Shown piece after piece: positions 13,548-20,403 of a stretch of DNA of 64,000 nt; positions within the stretch are counted from its first letter, which is position 1, and every line of letters starts with the position of its first letter. The translations under genes and the position numbers were made by a program. Origin of the DNA: Candidatus Moraniibacteriota bacterium (GTDB lineage: Bacteria; Patescibacteriota; Minisyncoccia; Moranbacterales; UBA1568); assembly GCA_013334575.1 (NCBI GenBank), contig JAAXXG010000003.1, positions 12,699-76,698 on the forward strand, in the 5' to 3' direction. The notes under the pieces were generated by a model. The model made no database searches, was not told where the DNA came from, and saw only the letters and a program-made list of their open reading frames with translations.

Positions 13548-13621
13548 GGGCGATTAGCTCAGTTGGTTAGAGCGCGTCACTGATAATGACGAGGTCCCAA
13601 GTTCGAATCTTGGATCGCCCA
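13548..13621 (+). tRNA. tRNA-Ile (anticodon GAT)
   Basis: It folds as a cloverleaf with anticodon loop CTGATAA. Confidence 0.85.
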
Positions 13622-13651
13622 CATTCCGTCTTCGAGAGGCGGGAAACATAT

Positions 13652-13724
13652 AGCGGGGTAGAGCAGCTGGCAGCTCGTCTGGCTCATAACCAGGAGGTCG
13701 TGGGTTCGAATCCCACCCCCGCAA
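13652..13724 (+). tRNA. tRNA-Met (anticodon CAT; could be elongator Met or Ile2)
   Basis: It folds as a cloverleaf with anticodon loop CTCATAA. There is an A1/A72 mismatch at the acceptor end. It lacks the three consecutive G:C pairs of an initiator anticodon stem. Confidence 0.7.
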
Positions 13725-13912
13725 CAAGGAACGAAGTGACGCAGTGGAGGGGAGAACGCCGACGATTCGGCGTTCGGTGGGATGAGAAGGGATTTCGAAA
13801 GAAATCCCCGGCTCGAAGAGGAAGAAATTCCCTGGGAGGGAATTTTTTCTACTCGCAACAAGCGACAGAAGGAGCCGCGCGAGCGGCTTTCTTCGTCGGA
13901 ACATGAGGATTT

Positions 13913-15769
13913 ATGATCGATGCATCAAAAAAGAATACCGAACCGAAACGTCTCCCGGCAAGGCGGATTTTCGCTTGGTATTGGAAGGTGCTGCGTAAAT
14001 ATCGTCGCCCCTTCCTTTTCGCGGTCGTGAGTTACGGGTTGGCGGCCGTTTCTGGGAGCGTCATCCCGCCGATCATCTACAAGGGGTTGACGGATACGTT
14101 GTCCGGCGCCGGCTCGCCGGAAATTTTCGGGCGCACCGGCGCGTGGGTCTGGGTTTCGGCGCTCGGCTTCAACTATCTCTCGACATACGTCTTTTTCCGG
14201 CTCGGCGATATCTCCTACTTCCGCCCGTACAGCAGGGCCGCAAAGGACCTGGTCGACTCCACCTTCGATCGGATCGAGTCGCGGTCGCACGGATTCTTCG
14301 CCGACCATTTCTCGGGGAGTCTCGTGTCGCAGGCAAGGCGGTATGTCGATTCGTTCGGTTCCCTGTCGGACACGATCATCTACAATATCTGGATGCCGAC
14401 CGTCAACCTGATCGGAAGCCTGATCGGGCTCTTCGTCTTCTCTCCGCCTTTGGCGGCGCTCTTCCTGACCGGTATGGCGATCATGTTGCTTCTTCCACTG
14501 CCGCTCCTCCGCAAGAGGATGTCGTTCGACGCGCTTGAGAGCGAGGAGGATTCCAGGGTGACCGGTCGTCTCGCGGACGTGATCACGAATATCCTGACGG
14601 TGAAGATGTTCGCTTCCGGTTCCGCTGAGCGGAAGTCGTTCCGGGAATTCACCGACCGGCAGGAGCGTGCCCGGGGCATGGCCTATCGGGCGCTCCTGCA
14701 TATGATCATGCTGCAGAACGGACTCGTGCTCGTCTTCCAGTTCGTCGGCATGGCCGCGTCGGTCTGGCTCTGGTCGCGCGGGACGATCACGGTCGGTACG
14801 GTCATCCTCATGCAGGCGTACCTGATGGGTGTCTTCAGTATCGCGAACCAGTTCAACCGTTCCGTTTCCGAGATCCTCCGCTCGCTTGCCCGCGCGTCCG
14901 AGATGGTTGAAATCTTCGAACTGCCACAGGACCTGACCGATCCGGAGCGGCCGGAGGAATGTCGGATCTCGAAGGGACGGATCGCGTTCCGGGACGTCTC
15001 GTTCCGATATCCAGGCGGTGATACCGTCTTCGAGAAGTTTTCCTTCTCCGTCCGTGCCGGGGAGAAGGTCGGACTCGTCGGTCCATCAGGCGGCGGGAAG
15101 TCGACCGTGACCAAACTGCTGCTTCGGTTCGTCGATCCGCAGGAGGGGGCGATCGAGATCGACGGACAGGATATCCGTCGCATCCGGCAGGACGATTTGC
15201 GGGCGCGTATCGCCTACGTGCCGCAGGACCCGCTGCTGTTCCATCGGTCGCTGCGCGAGAACATCGGATACGGCCGAGCGGGCGCTTCCGAAGAGGAGAT
15301 GCTTTCGGCATCGCGACGCGCACATGCGGATGAGTTCGTCGCGCGCCTGCCGGAGGGGTATGACACGCTCGTCGGCGAGCGCGGCGTGAAACTTTCGGGC
15401 GGTCAGCGGCAGCGCGTCGCGATCGCACGGGCGATCCTCAAGAATGCGCCGATTCTCGTACTCGACGAGGCGACGAGCGCGCTTGATTCGGAAAGCGAAC
15501 ATGCGATCCAGGAGGCGCTTGCCGAACTTATGACGGGGAAGACCGCGATCGTCATCGCTCACCGGCTCTCGACCATACGGCGGATGGATAGGATCGTCGT
15601 CCTCGGGAAAGACGGTCGCGTAGAGGAAGAGGGGACGCACGATGAACTTCTGTCCCGGAACGGACACTATGCCTCGTTGTGGGAGCGTCAGACCGGCGGG
15701 TTCATCGATAGCGACGATGTCGAAAACGCAGCCGATTCCGAGTCGGAAGCGTACCCATTGGAAGCCTGA
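13913..15769 (+). CDS. ABC exporter, fused permease/ATPase (MsbA/lipid A exporter-like)
   Basis: It has six N-terminal TM helices, a Walker A (GPSGGGKST), the signature LSGGQRQRVAIARA and a Walker B (ILVLDEATSALD). Confidence 0.9.
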   Translation: MIDASKKNTEPKRLPARRIFAWYWKVLRKYRRPFLFAVVSYGLAAVSGSVIPPIIYKGLTDTLSGAGSPEIFGRTGAWVWVSALGFNYLSTYVFFRLGDISYFRPYSRAAKDLVDSTFDRIESRSHGFFADHFSGSLVSQARRYVDSFGSLSDTIIYNIWMPTVNLIGSLIGLFVFSPPLAALFLTGMAIMLLLPLPLLRKRMSFDALESEEDSRVTGRLADVITNILTVKMFASGSAERKSFREFTDRQERARGMAYRALLHMIMLQNGLVLVFQFVGMAASVWLWSRGTITVGTVILMQAYLMGVFSIANQFNRSVSEILRSLARASEMVEIFELPQDLTDPERPEECRISKGRIAFRDVSFRYPGGDTVFEKFSFSVRAGEKVGLVGPSGGGKSTVTKLLLRFVDPQEGAIEIDGQDIRRIRQDDLRARIAYVPQDPLLFHRSLRENIGYGRAGASEEEMLSASRRAHADEFVARLPEGYDTLVGERGVKLSGGQRQRVAIARAILKNAPILVLDEATSALDSESEHAIQEALAELMTGKTAIVIAHRLSTIRRMDRIVVLGKDGRVEEEGTHDELLSRNGHYASLWERQTGGFIDSDDVENAADSESEAYPLEA

Positions 15770-15786
15770 CGAAGAACAATCTGTAA

Positions 15787-15811
15787 GGCCGCCCGCTTCT
15801 CGGGCGGTTTT
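15787..15811 (+). terminator. Rho-independent terminator (GGCCGCCCG-cttct-CGGGCGG followed by TTTT)
   Basis: A GC stem with a T-run lies 18 nt after the ABC exporter stop. Confidence 0.6.
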
Positions 15812-15837
15812 GCTTTTCTTAAGCCATTATAATACTA

Positions 15838-15866
15838 TTGACATTTTATTAAAAAAAGAGTATAAT
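15838..15866 (+). promoter_or_regulatory. Near-consensus sigma70-type promoter TTGACA-N17-TATAAT
   Basis: A perfect -35 and -10 pair with a 17-nt spacer lies about 75 nt upstream of the LPXTG gene. A GAGAGGAAG ribosome-binding site follows. Confidence 0.6.
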
Positions 15867-15942
15867 GGATAGTTTTATCGGGTGAACGGCCGTCAGGTCG
15901 TGTCTTCCGGAAAACGGATAACCAGTGAGAGGAAGAAGACGT

Positions 15943-16434
15943 ATGAAACGGGTGAATTCGGTGATGGCCGCCTTGGTCGCCATCGGGATGCTTGCGAATC
16001 CGGCCGTTTCCGCATTCGCGTGCGGGACGTGTCAGGATACGCCGACCCCTCCGTGTCAGGAGAATCCGGTCTGTGGTAATGGCGAGGTCGAAGCAGGCGA
16101 AGCCTGCGACGACGGGAACCGCGACGACAACGATACCTGCTCGAACGACTGCGTGAAGCAGATCGTGAAGGAGGTGCCATTCGAGGTCGTGAAGGAAGTC
16201 CCGGTCGAGGTGGAAAAGGTCGTGACCAAGGAGGTTCCGGTCATCCAGACGGTGACGAACACCGTGGAGAAGGTCGTATACAAGTACAAGCATCATCACG
16301 ACAAGCACAAGAAGAAGTCGTCCAAGAAGCAGGAAGTGCTTCCGGCGACCGGACTTCCGCTTGCCGGTTTCGCGGGAATCGGTCTTGCGGCCGCGGGCGT
16401 GACGGCGGCGGTACGGAAATCGCGGAAGCGGTAA
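15943..16434 (+). CDS. Secreted cysteine-rich surface protein with C-terminal LPXTG sortase anchor
   Basis: It has a signal peptide and a Cys-rich CGNGEVEAGEACDDGN...C..DC domain like the Myxococcus Cys-rich repeat. VKEVP repeats follow. It ends LPATG, then a hydrophobic stretch, then RKSRKR. Confidence 0.75.
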   Translation: MKRVNSVMAALVAIGMLANPAVSAFACGTCQDTPTPPCQENPVCGNGEVEAGEACDDGNRDDNDTCSNDCVKQIVKEVPFEVVKEVPVEVEKVVTKEVPVIQTVTNTVEKVVYKYKHHHDKHKKKSSKKQEVLPATGLPLAGFAGIGLAAAGVTAAVRKSRKR

Positions 16435-16525
16435 TCCGTGCGGAGAGTTCGAGGGACATGCGATGAGCATGTCCTTCCTCCTTCGATCCGTTGCTTCGGC
16501 AAGGGGACGGAGGAGGAAAAAACGT

Positions 16526-17626
16526 ATGAGGGGACGTATCGTATTCATGGAGAGACATTTCGGCAAGTCGGAGCGCGCCCGCGCGGCCGCTTCCGGGCTC
16601 TGGTATCGGATGAAACCGTTTCTCGGTCCGCTGGCCGGGTTTCTTGTCGTCGCTGCCGGCTTCTTTCTCGCGGCGAGCGTCGATTTTTCCGTGATCCGTG
16701 ATGCCGTCGACGGCCTTGCCGGAAAGACGGTCCGGGCGGAATCGTTGTCGCCGGAATGGATCACCAGATATTCGATCGTGATGAACGGGCGTATCCGGCC
16801 GGACGACGATGCCGACCACGACGGACTCGGATTCGTCGCGGAACAGTCGGCCGGGACGAATCCGTACGACGCCGATACCGACGACGACGGTGCGGGTGAT
16901 GCCGAGGAACTTTCCCGCGGTACCGACCCGCTCGGCTCCGGCGAACTCGATACGGACGCGGACGGAATGCCTGATCCGTGGGAGATGGCCAGGGAGCTCG
17001 ACCCGAAGGCGGCCGACGCCGACGTCGATCCGGACGGTGACGGATTGCCGAATATCGGCGAGTACGCGTACGGCACCGATCCGCATCTCTCCGATACCGA
17101 CGGCGACGGGTTCGGCGACGCCGCGGAGATCGGGAACGGGTACGATCCCGACGCTCCCGGCGACACCAAGCCGTCGGTGACCGTCCTTATCGAGAAGGTC
17201 GGCGTCGCGGCACCGATGATCTGGTCCTCGTCCGACGACGACACGAAGATGCTTTCCGATCTCAAGAACGGCGTCATCCGGTATCCGGATTCCGGCGTGC
17301 CGGGTCAGCCGGGAAACGTGATCATCGCCGGTCACAGCAGCAACTACGCGTGGGCGCAGGGGGACTACAATTCCGTTTTCCGCCGGCTTGGCGAACTTGC
17401 GGCCGGAGACATCGTGATCCTGCGTGCCAAGCAGGCCAACGGTCGGACCTTCGATTACCGGTACCGCCTGACCGAGAAGCGCGTTACGACTCCGGACGAT
17501 CCTTGGATCTTCGAGGATGACGGTGCCGACGAGGTGACCCTGAGTACCTGTTGGCCGCTCGGAACCGCCTTCCGCAGGCTTGTCCTGCGCGGCGAGATGG
17601 AGGAGGGCGAGGATTCCGCATCCTGA
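16526..17626 (+). CDS. Sortase (transpeptidase) with N-terminal TM anchor and thrombospondin-type-3-like Asp-rich Ca-binding repeats
   Basis: The catalytic triad context is IAGHSS (His), TLSTC (Cys) and RRLVLRG (Arg). The middle region carries DTDGDG and DxDxDG repeats. GGAGG lies 8 nt upstream of the ATG at 16526. Confidence 0.75.
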   Translation: MRGRIVFMERHFGKSERARAAASGLWYRMKPFLGPLAGFLVVAAGFFLAASVDFSVIRDAVDGLAGKTVRAESLSPEWITRYSIVMNGRIRPDDDADHDGLGFVAEQSAGTNPYDADTDDDGAGDAEELSRGTDPLGSGELDTDADGMPDPWEMARELDPKAADADVDPDGDGLPNIGEYAYGTDPHLSDTDGDGFGDAAEIGNGYDPDAPGDTKPSVTVLIEKVGVAAPMIWSSSDDDTKMLSDLKNGVIRYPDSGVPGQPGNVIIAGHSSNYAWAQGDYNSVFRRLGELAAGDIVILRAKQANGRTFDYRYRLTEKRVTTPDDPWIFEDDGADEVTLSTCWPLGTAFRRLVLRGEMEEGEDSAS

Positions 17627-17740
17627 AAATATTCCGGTCCTCCGTGTGTGTTGACTCGTCTCGGAATATCGGGTATCGTTCTAAGGAATCCGGTTCCGAG
17701 AGGATCGGCGGGTTCGTGTTCCGCCCCGCACCGCCTGTCT

Positions 17741-17814
17741 GCCAGGGTAGCTCAGTTGGTTAGAGCACGGGACTCATAAGCCCGGGGTCGAGAGTTCGAA
17801 TCTCTCCCCTGGTA
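17741..17814 (+). tRNA. tRNA-Met (anticodon CAT)
   Basis: It folds as a cloverleaf with anticodon loop CTCATAA and a G1-U72 pair. Confidence 0.75.
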
Positions 17815-17844
17815 CATGGTCGGAGCGGGACGGAAAAGCATGTT

Positions 17845-17918
17845 GGACCGGTAGCTCAGTTGGTTAGAGCGCCGCCCTGTCACGGCGGAGGTCGCGAGTT
17901 CGAGTCTCGTCCGGTCCG
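17845..17918 (+). tRNA. tRNA-Asp (anticodon GTC)
   Basis: It folds as a cloverleaf with anticodon loop CTGTCAC. Confidence 0.85.
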
Positions 17919-18186
17919 CCTTCGCTGCGCTGAAGCGCAGCTACGGCGGGACACAGTCCGCTTAGGTTCCGCCAACGTGGAACTACGGCGGGACACAGTC
18001 CGCAGTAGATGAGAGAAAGTGAGAGAGAACGAAGTGAACGCAAGTCCGGAAGCGAGCTGATGATTCGGCTTTCGTCGGGACGAGAAAGGCGCAGCGCGCT
18101 TCGCCAGTAGGCGAAGCCGCAAGCCGGGGTCGAGAAGGTCCGTCGCGACGGCGACGGATCATTCGTGACCGAGTCTCGTCCGGTCC
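17919..18186 (+). repeat. Non-coding stretch with two 21-bp direct repeats (CTACGGCGGGACACAGTCCGC) ending in an orphan copy of the tRNA-Asp 3' end (CGAGTCTCGTCCGGTCCGC)
   Basis: The tRNA-Asp 3' end recurs at about 18163-18183 without the rest of the tRNA. This looks like an attL/attR-type footprint. Confidence 0.45.
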
Positions 18187-18852: not shown

Positions 18853-19157
18853 TGAATGACGTCTGTCGAAAGGAAGGACGGATCGGTGCCGGAGGCCGTG
18901 GCGCGAATGCGGATCGCGGCTCTTCTTCGTGCGTGCTGCGCCGTCTTTCGCGTATCGAGGGGCAGGTCCGCGGTATCCGGAAGATGATCGAGGAAGGGCG
19001 GGACTGCGAGGCGGTCGTCCAGCAGGTGAGCGCGGTCCGCGAGGCGGTCTCCACGCTCGGACTCGAGCTGCTCCGGGACGATTTCGCCTGCCGGCGTCGC
19101 AAGGGTCGCGAGATCGACGAGCGGTTCCTCCGGTCCCTCTTCCGCATGAAACACTGA
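18852..19157 (+). CDS. CsoR/RcnR/FrmR-family (DUF156) metal-sensing transcriptional repressor
   Basis: LRRLSRIEGQVRGIRKMIEEGRDCEAVVQQVSAVREA is the family helical signature, with a conserved Cys. The protein is about 100 aa. Confidence 0.75.
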   Translation: MNDVCRKEGRIGAGGRGANADRGSSSCVLRRLSRIEGQVRGIRKMIEEGRDCEAVVQQVSAVREAVSTLGLELLRDDFACRRRKGREIDERFLRSLFRMKH

Positions 19158-19166
19158 ACGTTCCCT

Positions 19167-20246
19167 ATGCGATTCCTCGAACGGATTCTCGATGTGATCC
19201 AGTCGCATCTTATGATATGGATCGTCGCGTCGGTCGCGGCGGGACTTCTCGTCTCGTATCTCACGCCGGGGTTCGGATTTTCCGCCCTTATCTGCCTTCT
19301 GGCCGCCCTGGTCATGATCTATCCGTCGCTCGTGCCGCTCTCCTTCGACCGGTTGACGGAGATCGTCGGGCACGGCCGACCGGTCCTTTTTTCTCTCGGG
19401 CTCAACTTCATCGTCTCGCCGGCGATCGCCTACGCGATAGGGTCGGTGTTCCTGTCCGGATTTCCCGAATACCGGCTCGGGCTGACGCTTTTATCGCTTC
19501 TTCCCGGCGGCGGAATGGTGACGACCTGGGCCACGCGCTCCAAGGCCGACATGCCGGCGACCGTCGGTATCATTCTTGCGAACCTTGCCGTTGCGGTCCT
19601 CATCGTTCCGCTTTCGTTCCCGATTCTCGTCCGGGACTCCTTTTTGCCCGGCTCCGACGCGCTTCCTTCGGTATCCGAATCGTCAGCCTGTCCGCTCGGT
19701 CAGGCGACTGCCGGTGTCGTCACCTGCGGCGCAGCCGTTTCCGCAGGTATCAGTCCTTGGAAGATCGCGGTTCCCATCCTCTTCATCGTCGTCGTTCCGG
19801 CCGTACTCGCCTGGCTTACGCAGAGAGTTTTACTCCGTCGCGGCGGTATCGCCCTGCTCGATCGGGCGAAGGTCCTCTTCGGGAAGGCGGGGAACGCGGG
19901 TCTCGTTATCGTGCTGTTCGTACTCATGGGGCTTCATGCGAACCGTGAGATCCTGACCCGTCCTTCCGATATCCTGCCGGCTATCGTTCCGGTCGTCCTG
20001 TTCTACACGGCGTTGTTCCTGGTTGCCGGGTTCGCTGCCGGACGGATCGCCGACACCGCGGTTCGGAGGGCGTTCTTCTGGGGATCGTCGCTCCGGTATC
20101 TGACGCTCGCTCTCGGACTCTCCATCTCATTCGCGTTCCAGAATCCGGACATGCTCCGGATGTCGGTCGTGGTCGTCCTTTCGTATCTGGTGCAGATTCC
20201 GGCGTCGTTTCGGGTCGCGCAGCGGATGCGGCGCGCGGAATCCTGA
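19167..20246 (+). CDS. ACR3/BASS-family (bile acid:sodium symporter fold) metal(loid) efflux permease
   Basis: It is a ten-TM protein with an SLLPGGGMVTTWATRS motif. It lies directly downstream of the RcnR-like repressor. Confidence 0.5.
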   Translation: MRFLERILDVIQSHLMIWIVASVAAGLLVSYLTPGFGFSALICLLAALVMIYPSLVPLSFDRLTEIVGHGRPVLFSLGLNFIVSPAIAYAIGSVFLSGFPEYRLGLTLLSLLPGGGMVTTWATRSKADMPATVGIILANLAVAVLIVPLSFPILVRDSFLPGSDALPSVSESSACPLGQATAGVVTCGAAVSAGISPWKIAVPILFIVVVPAVLAWLTQRVLLRRGGIALLDRAKVLFGKAGNAGLVIVLFVLMGLHANREILTRPSDILPAIVPVVLFYTALFLVAGFAAGRIADTAVRRAFFWGSSLRYLTLALGLSISFAFQNPDMLRMSVVVVLSYLVQIPASFRVAQRMRRAES

Positions 20247-20403
20247 ACGGCATCCCGGCGGAACGGACGGAAGGGTACGTCCGTCGCGCCGGGGAGGCGT
20301 TCCCCATCGTTCCGGCCGACGAGCCGGTACGTGGTATAATCTCACGCGTAATCAGATCGGGATCCGCGACTCGGGCACGAGGCGCGTCGTTCCGGAAAAC
20401 GAT

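Follow-up and report, generated by a model that had tools for sequence, protein, structure and literature searches.

A 64-kb stretch of a Candidatus Moraniibacteriota contig (assembly GCA_013334575.1, JAAXXG010000003.1), hereafter the window, carries a compact two-gene cassette: a gene for a small, secreted protein bearing an LPATG sorting motif, followed by a gene for a membrane-anchored sortase whose catalytic domain is preceded by an array of calcium-loop-like repeats. All cassette coordinates refer to the window, + strand, and are collected in Table 1. The 5′ boundary of the cassette is the intrinsic terminator of an upstream gene, the product of which contains the Pfam domains ABC_membrane and ABC_tran and ends at 15769. 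Within the window there is just one protein with a cell wall sorting signal and one sortase. An initial annotation of this DNA had proposed a perfect TTGACA-N17-TATAAT promoter and ribosome-binding sites ahead of the genes, a small secreted protein with a Myxococcus-type Cys-rich repeat, VKEVP repeats and an LPATG anchor, and a sortase with a TLSTC Cys, a GH His and an Arg, carrying DTDGDG and DxDxDG repeats between its membrane anchor and catalytic domain; all of these elements were recovered.

Table 1. Features of the sortase-substrate cassette and its 5′ boundary
Feature	Position	Strand	Basis and details
Intrinsic terminator of upstream ABC-exporter gene	15783-15813	+	13-bp stem, then T-run
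Sigma-70 consensus promoter	15838-15866	+	TTGACA 15838-15843, 17-nt spacer, TATAAT 15861-15866; 12/12 match
Predicted 5′-terminal mRNA stem-loop	15872-15915	+	GUUUU...AAAAC closing pairs; starts ~6 nt past the -10 box
Conserved leader box	15917-15927	+	GAUAACCAGUG in the window, UAAUCAGUG in relatives; block in leader alignments A3 and A4
Substrate Shine-Dalgarno region	15927-15935	+	GAGAGGAAG; GAGG core ~10 nt before ATG 15943; read from sequence
Substrate gene, 163-aa secreted LPATG protein	15943-16434	+	Open reading frame; TIGR02232 match; homologues P0121-P0126 with like layout
Signal peptide, residues 1-26	15943-16020	+	MKR, 15-residue hydrophobic core, AFA/C
Cys-rich acidic repeat, one copy	16072-16152	+	CGNG...CDDGN...C...C; TIGR02232 above cut-off
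VKEVP/VEKVV repeat region ending VVYKYK	16156-16290	+	Best-conserved part of the substrate
His/Lys-rich stretch and sorting signal	16291-16431	+	LPATG 16339-16353; 20-residue hydrophobic segment 16354-16413; RKSRKR tail
Intercistronic hairpin 1	16452-16476	+	Arms GGGACAUGC and GCAUGUCC, then U/C-rich tract
Intercistronic hairpin 2, UUCG loop	16477-16517	+	3′ arm is the sortase Shine-Dalgarno GGAGGAGGA at 16509-16517
Sortase gene, 366 aa, type II membrane topology	16526-17626	+	Pfam Sortase; P0001 99% identical; AlphaFold2 model
Transmembrane anchor, residues 31-52	16616-16681	+	Preceded by basic cytoplasmic N-terminus (7 K/R in 29 residues)
Five TSP3_bac/EF-loop-like repeats, residues 93-208	16802-17149	+	Pfam TSP3_bac; DxDxDG-type motifs
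Sortase catalytic beta-barrel	17174-17599	+	His270 17333-17335; Cys342 in TLSTC 17549-17551; Arg351 17576-17578

The longest reading frame of the second gene spans 16463-17626. We place the start at ATG 16526, 63 nt (21 codons) later, because GGAGGAGGA sits 9 nt before it and the 99%-identical homologue P0001 has 366 residues; an exact database look-up of the 387-residue longest frame found no match because the true start lies 21 codons downstream. The profile similarity on which the identification as a sortase hinged is present: Pfam Sortase (PF04203, peptidase C60) scores 71.4 bits against a cut-off of 26.6, and TIGR01076 scores 34.3, slightly under its cut-off of 39.35. The AlphaFold2 model (mean predicted local distance difference test score, pLDDT, 88.6) contains a helix over residues 15-51 and the eight-stranded beta-barrel of the sortase fold, and a Foldseek search of the PDB returned sortases only (E ~1e-12), with class C pilin sortases as the top matches. 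Among proteins of solved structure, C. perfringens SrtD is the closest in sequence (60 bits). The His-Cys-Arg triad is complete, with the motifs GHSS, TLSTC and FRR contributing H270, C342 and R351, each invariant in an alignment of 56 homologues.

The protein encoded by the first gene begins with a canonical-type signal peptide by rule-based criteria, as do all 61 of the 61 neighbouring substrates found in relatives. Three Cys residues follow it, and then one 27-residue CGNG...CDDGN...C...C unit, which the NCBIfam model TIGR02232 ('cysteine-rich acidic repeat') recognises with 30.7 bits against a cut-off of 20.8; Pfam DUF4215 gives 20.4 bits, below its cut-off of 27, and is above cut-off in the homologues P0121 and P0124. 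The number of these repeats is variable. The locus L001 (GCA_013336155.1, 5319-5909) has two copies where the window has one, the difference being an exact 99-nt in-frame insertion or deletion corresponding to one 33-residue repeat, although the DNA of the two is otherwise ~98.5% identical, and other relatives have 0, 2 or 4 copies. The exposed head of the substrate thus varies quickly in length between close strains. The VKEVP/VEKVV region that follows contains the invariant columns of the substrate alignment A2 (I74, K84-E85-V86, V108-E109-K110, K114 and K116). Across 62 aligned substrates the sorting signal follows the consensus [K/R]-x-[L/T/A]-P-A-T-G-[S/A]-G, with Pro at position 2 in 62/62 and Lys or Arg at position -2 in 47/62; the candidate cleavage peptide of the window protein is predicted to be KKQEVLPATGLPLA.

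Is the neighbouring protein a dedicated partner of the sortase, as the initial annotation had proposed? Conservation of the pair, which it had suggested checking, was surveyed by scanning one genome per species, which yielded 196 relatives; the best 80 of the 196 were taken as loci, 74 of them with enough flanking sequence. The labels of these best 80 are almost all Moranbacteria, Parcubacteria or Patescibacteria, and the database homologues of the sortase likewise bear names indicating Candidatus Moranbacteria/Patescibacteria. A metagenome scan returned three loci only, all distant, and a HMMER search of all representatives was dominated by giant proteins with multiple thrombospondin type 3 (TSP3) repeats, its counts not being equivalent to family size. 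All loci inspected first have a small secreted xPxTG protein just upstream of the sortase, and an adjacent gene combining a signal peptide with xPxTG was found at 61 of the 74 loci (58 by regular expression, plus two upstream and one downstream by inspection). Moreover, the kind of partner follows the kind of enzyme. In the clade of the window, the sortase is accompanied by Cys-repeat/VEKVV proteins with LPxTG, in a second clade by SdrD_B-type proteins with [T/A/S]PxTG, and in a third by low-complexity Asp/His/Lys-rich proteins with LPATG, such that sortase subclade co-varies with both substrate type and motif (L versus T/A/S before Pro). Two metagenome-assembled genomes each contain two TSP3-sortase cassettes of different subclades, each with a substrate of the matching type (L019 and L080 in JBAQNP01; L055 and L089 in JBAZUU01). 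Alternatively, the enzyme might be a housekeeping sortase that anchors every LPxTG protein of the cell, its neighbour being merely one substrate among others. We consider this unlikely given the frequency of adjacency, the way in which motif and substrate type follow the sortase subclade, the presence of two cassettes within one genome and the lack of a second sorting-signal protein in the 64 kb. Since adjacency, subclade co-variation and dual-cassette genomes all support cognate pairing, we regard a dedicated pair as the probable arrangement, on the grounds of comparative sequence analysis.

What the sortase does with its partner might still deviate from simple wall anchoring. A fibre-building enzyme akin to class C would join the Thr of LPATG to the conserved Lys in VVYKYK of another copy, and would thus generate a covalent polymer rather than only wall-anchored monomers. 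The top Foldseek matches to class C pilin sortases, the invariance of K114 and K116 in VEKVVYKYK and a strong promoter befitting a structural subunit would all agree with such an activity. The features of class C proper were not found: the sortase C-terminus is acidic and has no hydrophobic segment, and Pfam detects no pilin domain in the substrate. We judge polymerisation very unlikely. A second variant starts from the Cys residues. In most clade I substrates their number is odd (7, 11, 11, 5 and 17), that is, one beyond the four in each repeat and often exactly at the predicted mature N-terminus (substrate residues 27-70, window 16020-16152), and possible partners of this extra Cys are an intermolecular disulfide or a lipid. 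Were it lipidated at the lipobox-like sequence SAFA/C, the protein would be tethered to the membrane by its N-terminus and to the wall by its C-terminus, as a monoderm analogue of Braun's lipoprotein. The small size of the protein, its very strong promoter, the odd Cys count and a match of the permissive PROSITE lipobox to the window, L013, L014 and L015 are in keeping with this notion, whereas L016-L019, P0123 and P0126 lack a lipobox or lack this very Cys, and AFA/C is an equally good signal peptidase I site. A lipid-plus-wall tether is weakened by the fact that just 4 of the 61 substrates fit even the permissive lipobox, and it appears to us extremely improbable.

The most distinctive part of the sortase is the array of five repeats between membrane anchor and barrel, which scores 33.2 bits with TSP3_bac (PF18884; cut-off 25). 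Residues 90-216 comprise 38 acidic and 5 basic residues, and the model, which is confident here (pLDDT > 90), places a short helix behind every loop. The repeat motif agrees with the canonical 12-residue EF loop, DxDxDGxxDxxE. Residues 92-215 are 43-54% identical to the TSP3 arrays of giant proteins and also match Myxococcus CglD and MtsD; searched alone against the PDB, the repeats gave weak EF-hand matches, including lanmodulin (6mi5, E 0.025). Two family members match the NCBIfam lanmodulin model (best E 4.7e-05), which reflects EF-loop periodicity and poses a question of metal selectivity. From this sequence pattern, the repeats most likely bind Ca2+. The Asp and Glu residues of the two repeats adjoining the barrel are invariant across the family, and the number of repeats upstream differs, being ~5 in the clade of the window, ~4 in the second clade and 0-3 strict motifs in the third. 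The initial annotation had called this an unusual sortase architecture; this holds in comparison with characterised or solved sortases but not within Moranbacteria and Parcubacteria, where the TSP3-sortase layout is the rule, because nearly all of the database matches listed carry both PF04203 and PF18884. The idea that the acidic stalk generally docks a polybasic segment ahead of the LPxTG motif was rejected, since net charge over the 40 residues preceding this motif varies from -15 to +12.

Expression signals of the cassette are equally elaborate. The substrate promoter is the sole such site in the window with at most one mismatch (pattern search; 0.13 expected from shuffles) and lies directly after the terminator, in an AT-rich island (GC 0.445 versus ~0.61). 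Relatives share it: a 12/12 match is found in L001, L003, L013, L014, L015 and L016, and a 10-11/12 match in L018, L019 and L096-L098. In these loci it lies 75-109 nt upstream of the substrate ATG, and matches of at least 10/12 occur at 23 of 60 loci where 5.3 are expected. The leader that follows is predicted to fold into a 44-nt 5′-terminal hairpin (-18.1 kcal/mol, z -2.9), and a hairpin of 44-47 nt with differing inner stems was predicted in 7/7 leaders folded. The consensus fold that RNAalifold computed from the MAFFT-aligned leaders had an energy near zero; the stems are misaligned there, and the hairpin claim accordingly rests on independent single-sequence folds. The GUUUU/AAAAC hairpin, which falls where transcription is predicted to start, and the box are also seen at the same position in L003, L013, L015-L018, L096 and L098. 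Hairpins of this type at the 5′ terminus usually stabilise mRNA. By analogy, the leader hairpin of the cassette might do the same, and together with the box it may constitute a so far uncharacterised element of Moranbacteria with an mRNA-stabilising or regulatory role.

Between the two genes, the RNA from 16425 to 16540 folds with a minimum free energy of -53.1 kcal/mol (z -5.56), and 0 of 200 shuffles were as stable. All clade I spacers folded are predicted to contain an equivalent of hairpin 1, which in AT-rich relatives is followed by a U-run, terminator-like. The two-hairpin layout likewise recurs, with other sequences, in every clade I relative folded, a pyrimidine arm pairing with a purine arm. 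In second-clade loci, the sortase is preceded by a true terminator and has a consensus promoter of its own. It is plausible that substrate and sortase are co-transcribed as an operon in the window, with the terminator-like hairpin lying between them, and the likely outcome of promoter and spacer is abundant substrate and little enzyme. No Rfam family matches the leader or the spacer. The leader hairpin, the tandem intercistronic hairpins (one of them over the sortase ribosome-binding site) and the one-repeat length polymorphism between strains are newly noted here.

How might such a cassette work? It is probably a self-contained sortase-substrate unit. We envision that the consensus promoter and the stabilising 5′-terminal hairpin would yield abundant substrate mRNA, and that the substrate would be exported by the Sec pathway, lose its signal peptide and be retained in the membrane by its C-terminal hydrophobic segment and RKSRKR tail. 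Cys342 would then cut LPATG between Thr and Gly and transfer the protein onto a peptidoglycan precursor, so that an acidic, disulfide-bonded knob might be displayed on a Val/Lys/Glu/Pro-rich stalk covalently linked to the wall. The terminator-like hairpin and the hairpin pairing with the ribosome-binding site would meanwhile hold sortase output well below substrate output. Conceivably, the five DxDxDGxxDxxE repeats serve as a metal-stiffened stalk or a regulatory module that positions or stabilises the extracellular catalytic domain; on this specific role our opinion is evenly divided. Promoter strength and conservation suggest that the cassette could be a major surface or adhesion structure. 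A bolder version combines these elements: the calcium-loop array would be a metal-gated ruler keeping the barrel off the membrane, activity would require Ca2+ or, in view of the resemblance of the loops to those of lanmodulin, another hard cation, and the single abundant partner would be attached not to lipid II but to the mature wall or an outer layer. This is a long shot. If it were true, the principal surface coat or the host-contact layer of Moranbacteria would be the product of such a cassette, and the conserved hairpins would set the substrate:enzyme ratio.

Several considerations weigh against the wall-anchoring cassette as we describe it. Ca2+ binding, wall anchoring with its cleavage specificity and acceptor, and the level of expression are things we infer from the sequence. 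No adjacent sorting-signal gene is found in 13/74 relatives, and the search for further substrates spans the 64-kb window. Pfam Gram_pos_anchor scores 14.9 bits on the substrate, below its cut-off of 20, and membership among LPXTG proteins accordingly rests on the visible tripartite features and the 62 aligned relatives. A substrate model built from six sequences reached a pLDDT of 41.5 and is unusable. The predicted folds clearly sequester the sortase ribosome-binding site only in the window, L013/L003 and L015; elsewhere this is less evident. The need for a long stalk is not obvious either, since the two natural substrates of a sortase are both located at the membrane. Finally, none of the NCBIfam class models reaches its cut-off on the sortase (class D, 48 of 165 bits; SrtD, 48 of 140; class E, 35 of 160; class F, 32 of 166; class C, 30 of 160; class GN, 23 of 158), and the class A and class B models gave no match. 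All 56 homologues show a similar below-cut-off pattern; by these profile scores, the enzyme stands outside the curated classes, with class D nearest.

Some observations concern the surroundings of the cassette and its relatives. A tRNA-Ile and tRNA-Met pair (13548-13725) lies ~2 kb upstream, beyond the ABC-exporter gene, and tRNA-Met and tRNA-Asp lie directly 3′ of the sortase (17741-17920). A promoter-like TTGACT-N17-TATCGT follows the sortase stop at 17651-17679; no terminator-like site 3′ of the gene was reported in the window. About 1.2 kb of the window (19148-20349) is absent from the otherwise collinear L001 and contains a gene for a 359-residue SBF protein (bile acid:Na+ symporter family; 19167-20246), inserted between genes for a CsoR-like repressor and a thioredoxin. 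Contigs with a Patescibacteria-type cassette are labelled 'Candidatus Fimivivens' (Oscillospiraceae), 'uncultured Bdellovibrionales' or 'Micavibrio' (L016, L017, L029, L034, L036, L047 and others), which are probably taxonomic mislabels or mis-binned contigs. The TSP3-sortases of one subclade (L034, L039, L047, L052 and L056) have no LPxTG neighbour and are followed by a gene for a secreted protein of 480-525 residues that ends in FSLFGWM(F/R)(R/N/K)K..., with neither LPxTG nor a full-length transmembrane segment; judging by its sequence, this tail may be a different C-terminal signal. In the subclade of L026, L031 and L032, a conserved protein of 367-375 residues (...VWKCGYSCQGHDP...) is encoded upstream and one of 317-343 residues (MNPLxRTxLATIxYYDAMDYPLT...) downstream of the sortase, again with no sorting-signal neighbour.

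Most bacteria of the candidate phyla radiation (CPR), or Patescibacteria, are epibionts that have not been cultured, and little is known of their surface chemistry. The conserved, strongly promoted pair is a candidate for a major wall-anchored surface component of these bacteria, and it offers defined peptides and a soluble enzyme for in vitro work that dispenses with culturing. A sortase clade outside classes A-F with calcium-type loops could reveal new modes of regulation or positioning and may be useful for metal-switchable ligases, and the leader and intercistronic RNA structures offer a case in which stoichiometry control in a minimal genome can be tested. According to Méheust et al. (2019, PMC6744442), a family of sortases occurs in over half of CPR genomes; the TSP3 fusion is not described there. 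In the literature searched, CPR sortases are mentioned only generically, and no match pairs sortase with thrombospondin type 3 or with Moranbacteria.

Several known systems come close to the cassette, among them the class D sortases that are encoded beside dedicated substrates of their own, as in C. perfringens (SrtD, 4d70) and B. anthracis (2ln7). Their motif is LPNTA or LPxTATN, whereas here it is [K/R]x-LPATG-[S/A/L]G; they come from Bacillota rather than Patescibacteria, and the window sortase differs from them both in its score (48 versus 165 bits) and in the 115-residue array of five TSP3/EF-loop repeats between anchor and barrel. Class E sortases recognise LAxTG, whereas Pro at position 2 is invariant here (62/62), and we know of no calcium-loop stalk among them; with the model of this class, represented in Actinobacteria by S. 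avermitilis SrtE (5go6), S. coelicolor SrtE1 (5cuw) and a T. fusca enzyme (9iok), the window sortase scores 35 bits against 160. The class GN 'marine' sortase (TIGR03784) resembles our system in that a single sortase gene stands beside a single target gene as a conserved pair, but the profile score (23 versus 158 bits), the target family and the lineage are all different. In the Ca2+-stimulated sortase A of S. aureus, the ion is held by loops of the catalytic barrel, whereas the putative sites described here lie in a repeat array N-terminal to it. The DxDxDGxxDxxE periodicity is shared with bacterial TSP3 repeats (PF18884), as in CglD and MtsD of Myxococcus, and weakly with lanmodulin, an EF-hand loop protein; these proteins are adhesins, linkers or metal-binding proteins, none of them fused to a transpeptidase, unlike the window sortase. 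What databases label merely 'sortase' is a Patescibacteria clade in which the enzyme carries a built-in calcium-loop stalk and is accompanied by an adjacent, probably cognate substrate.

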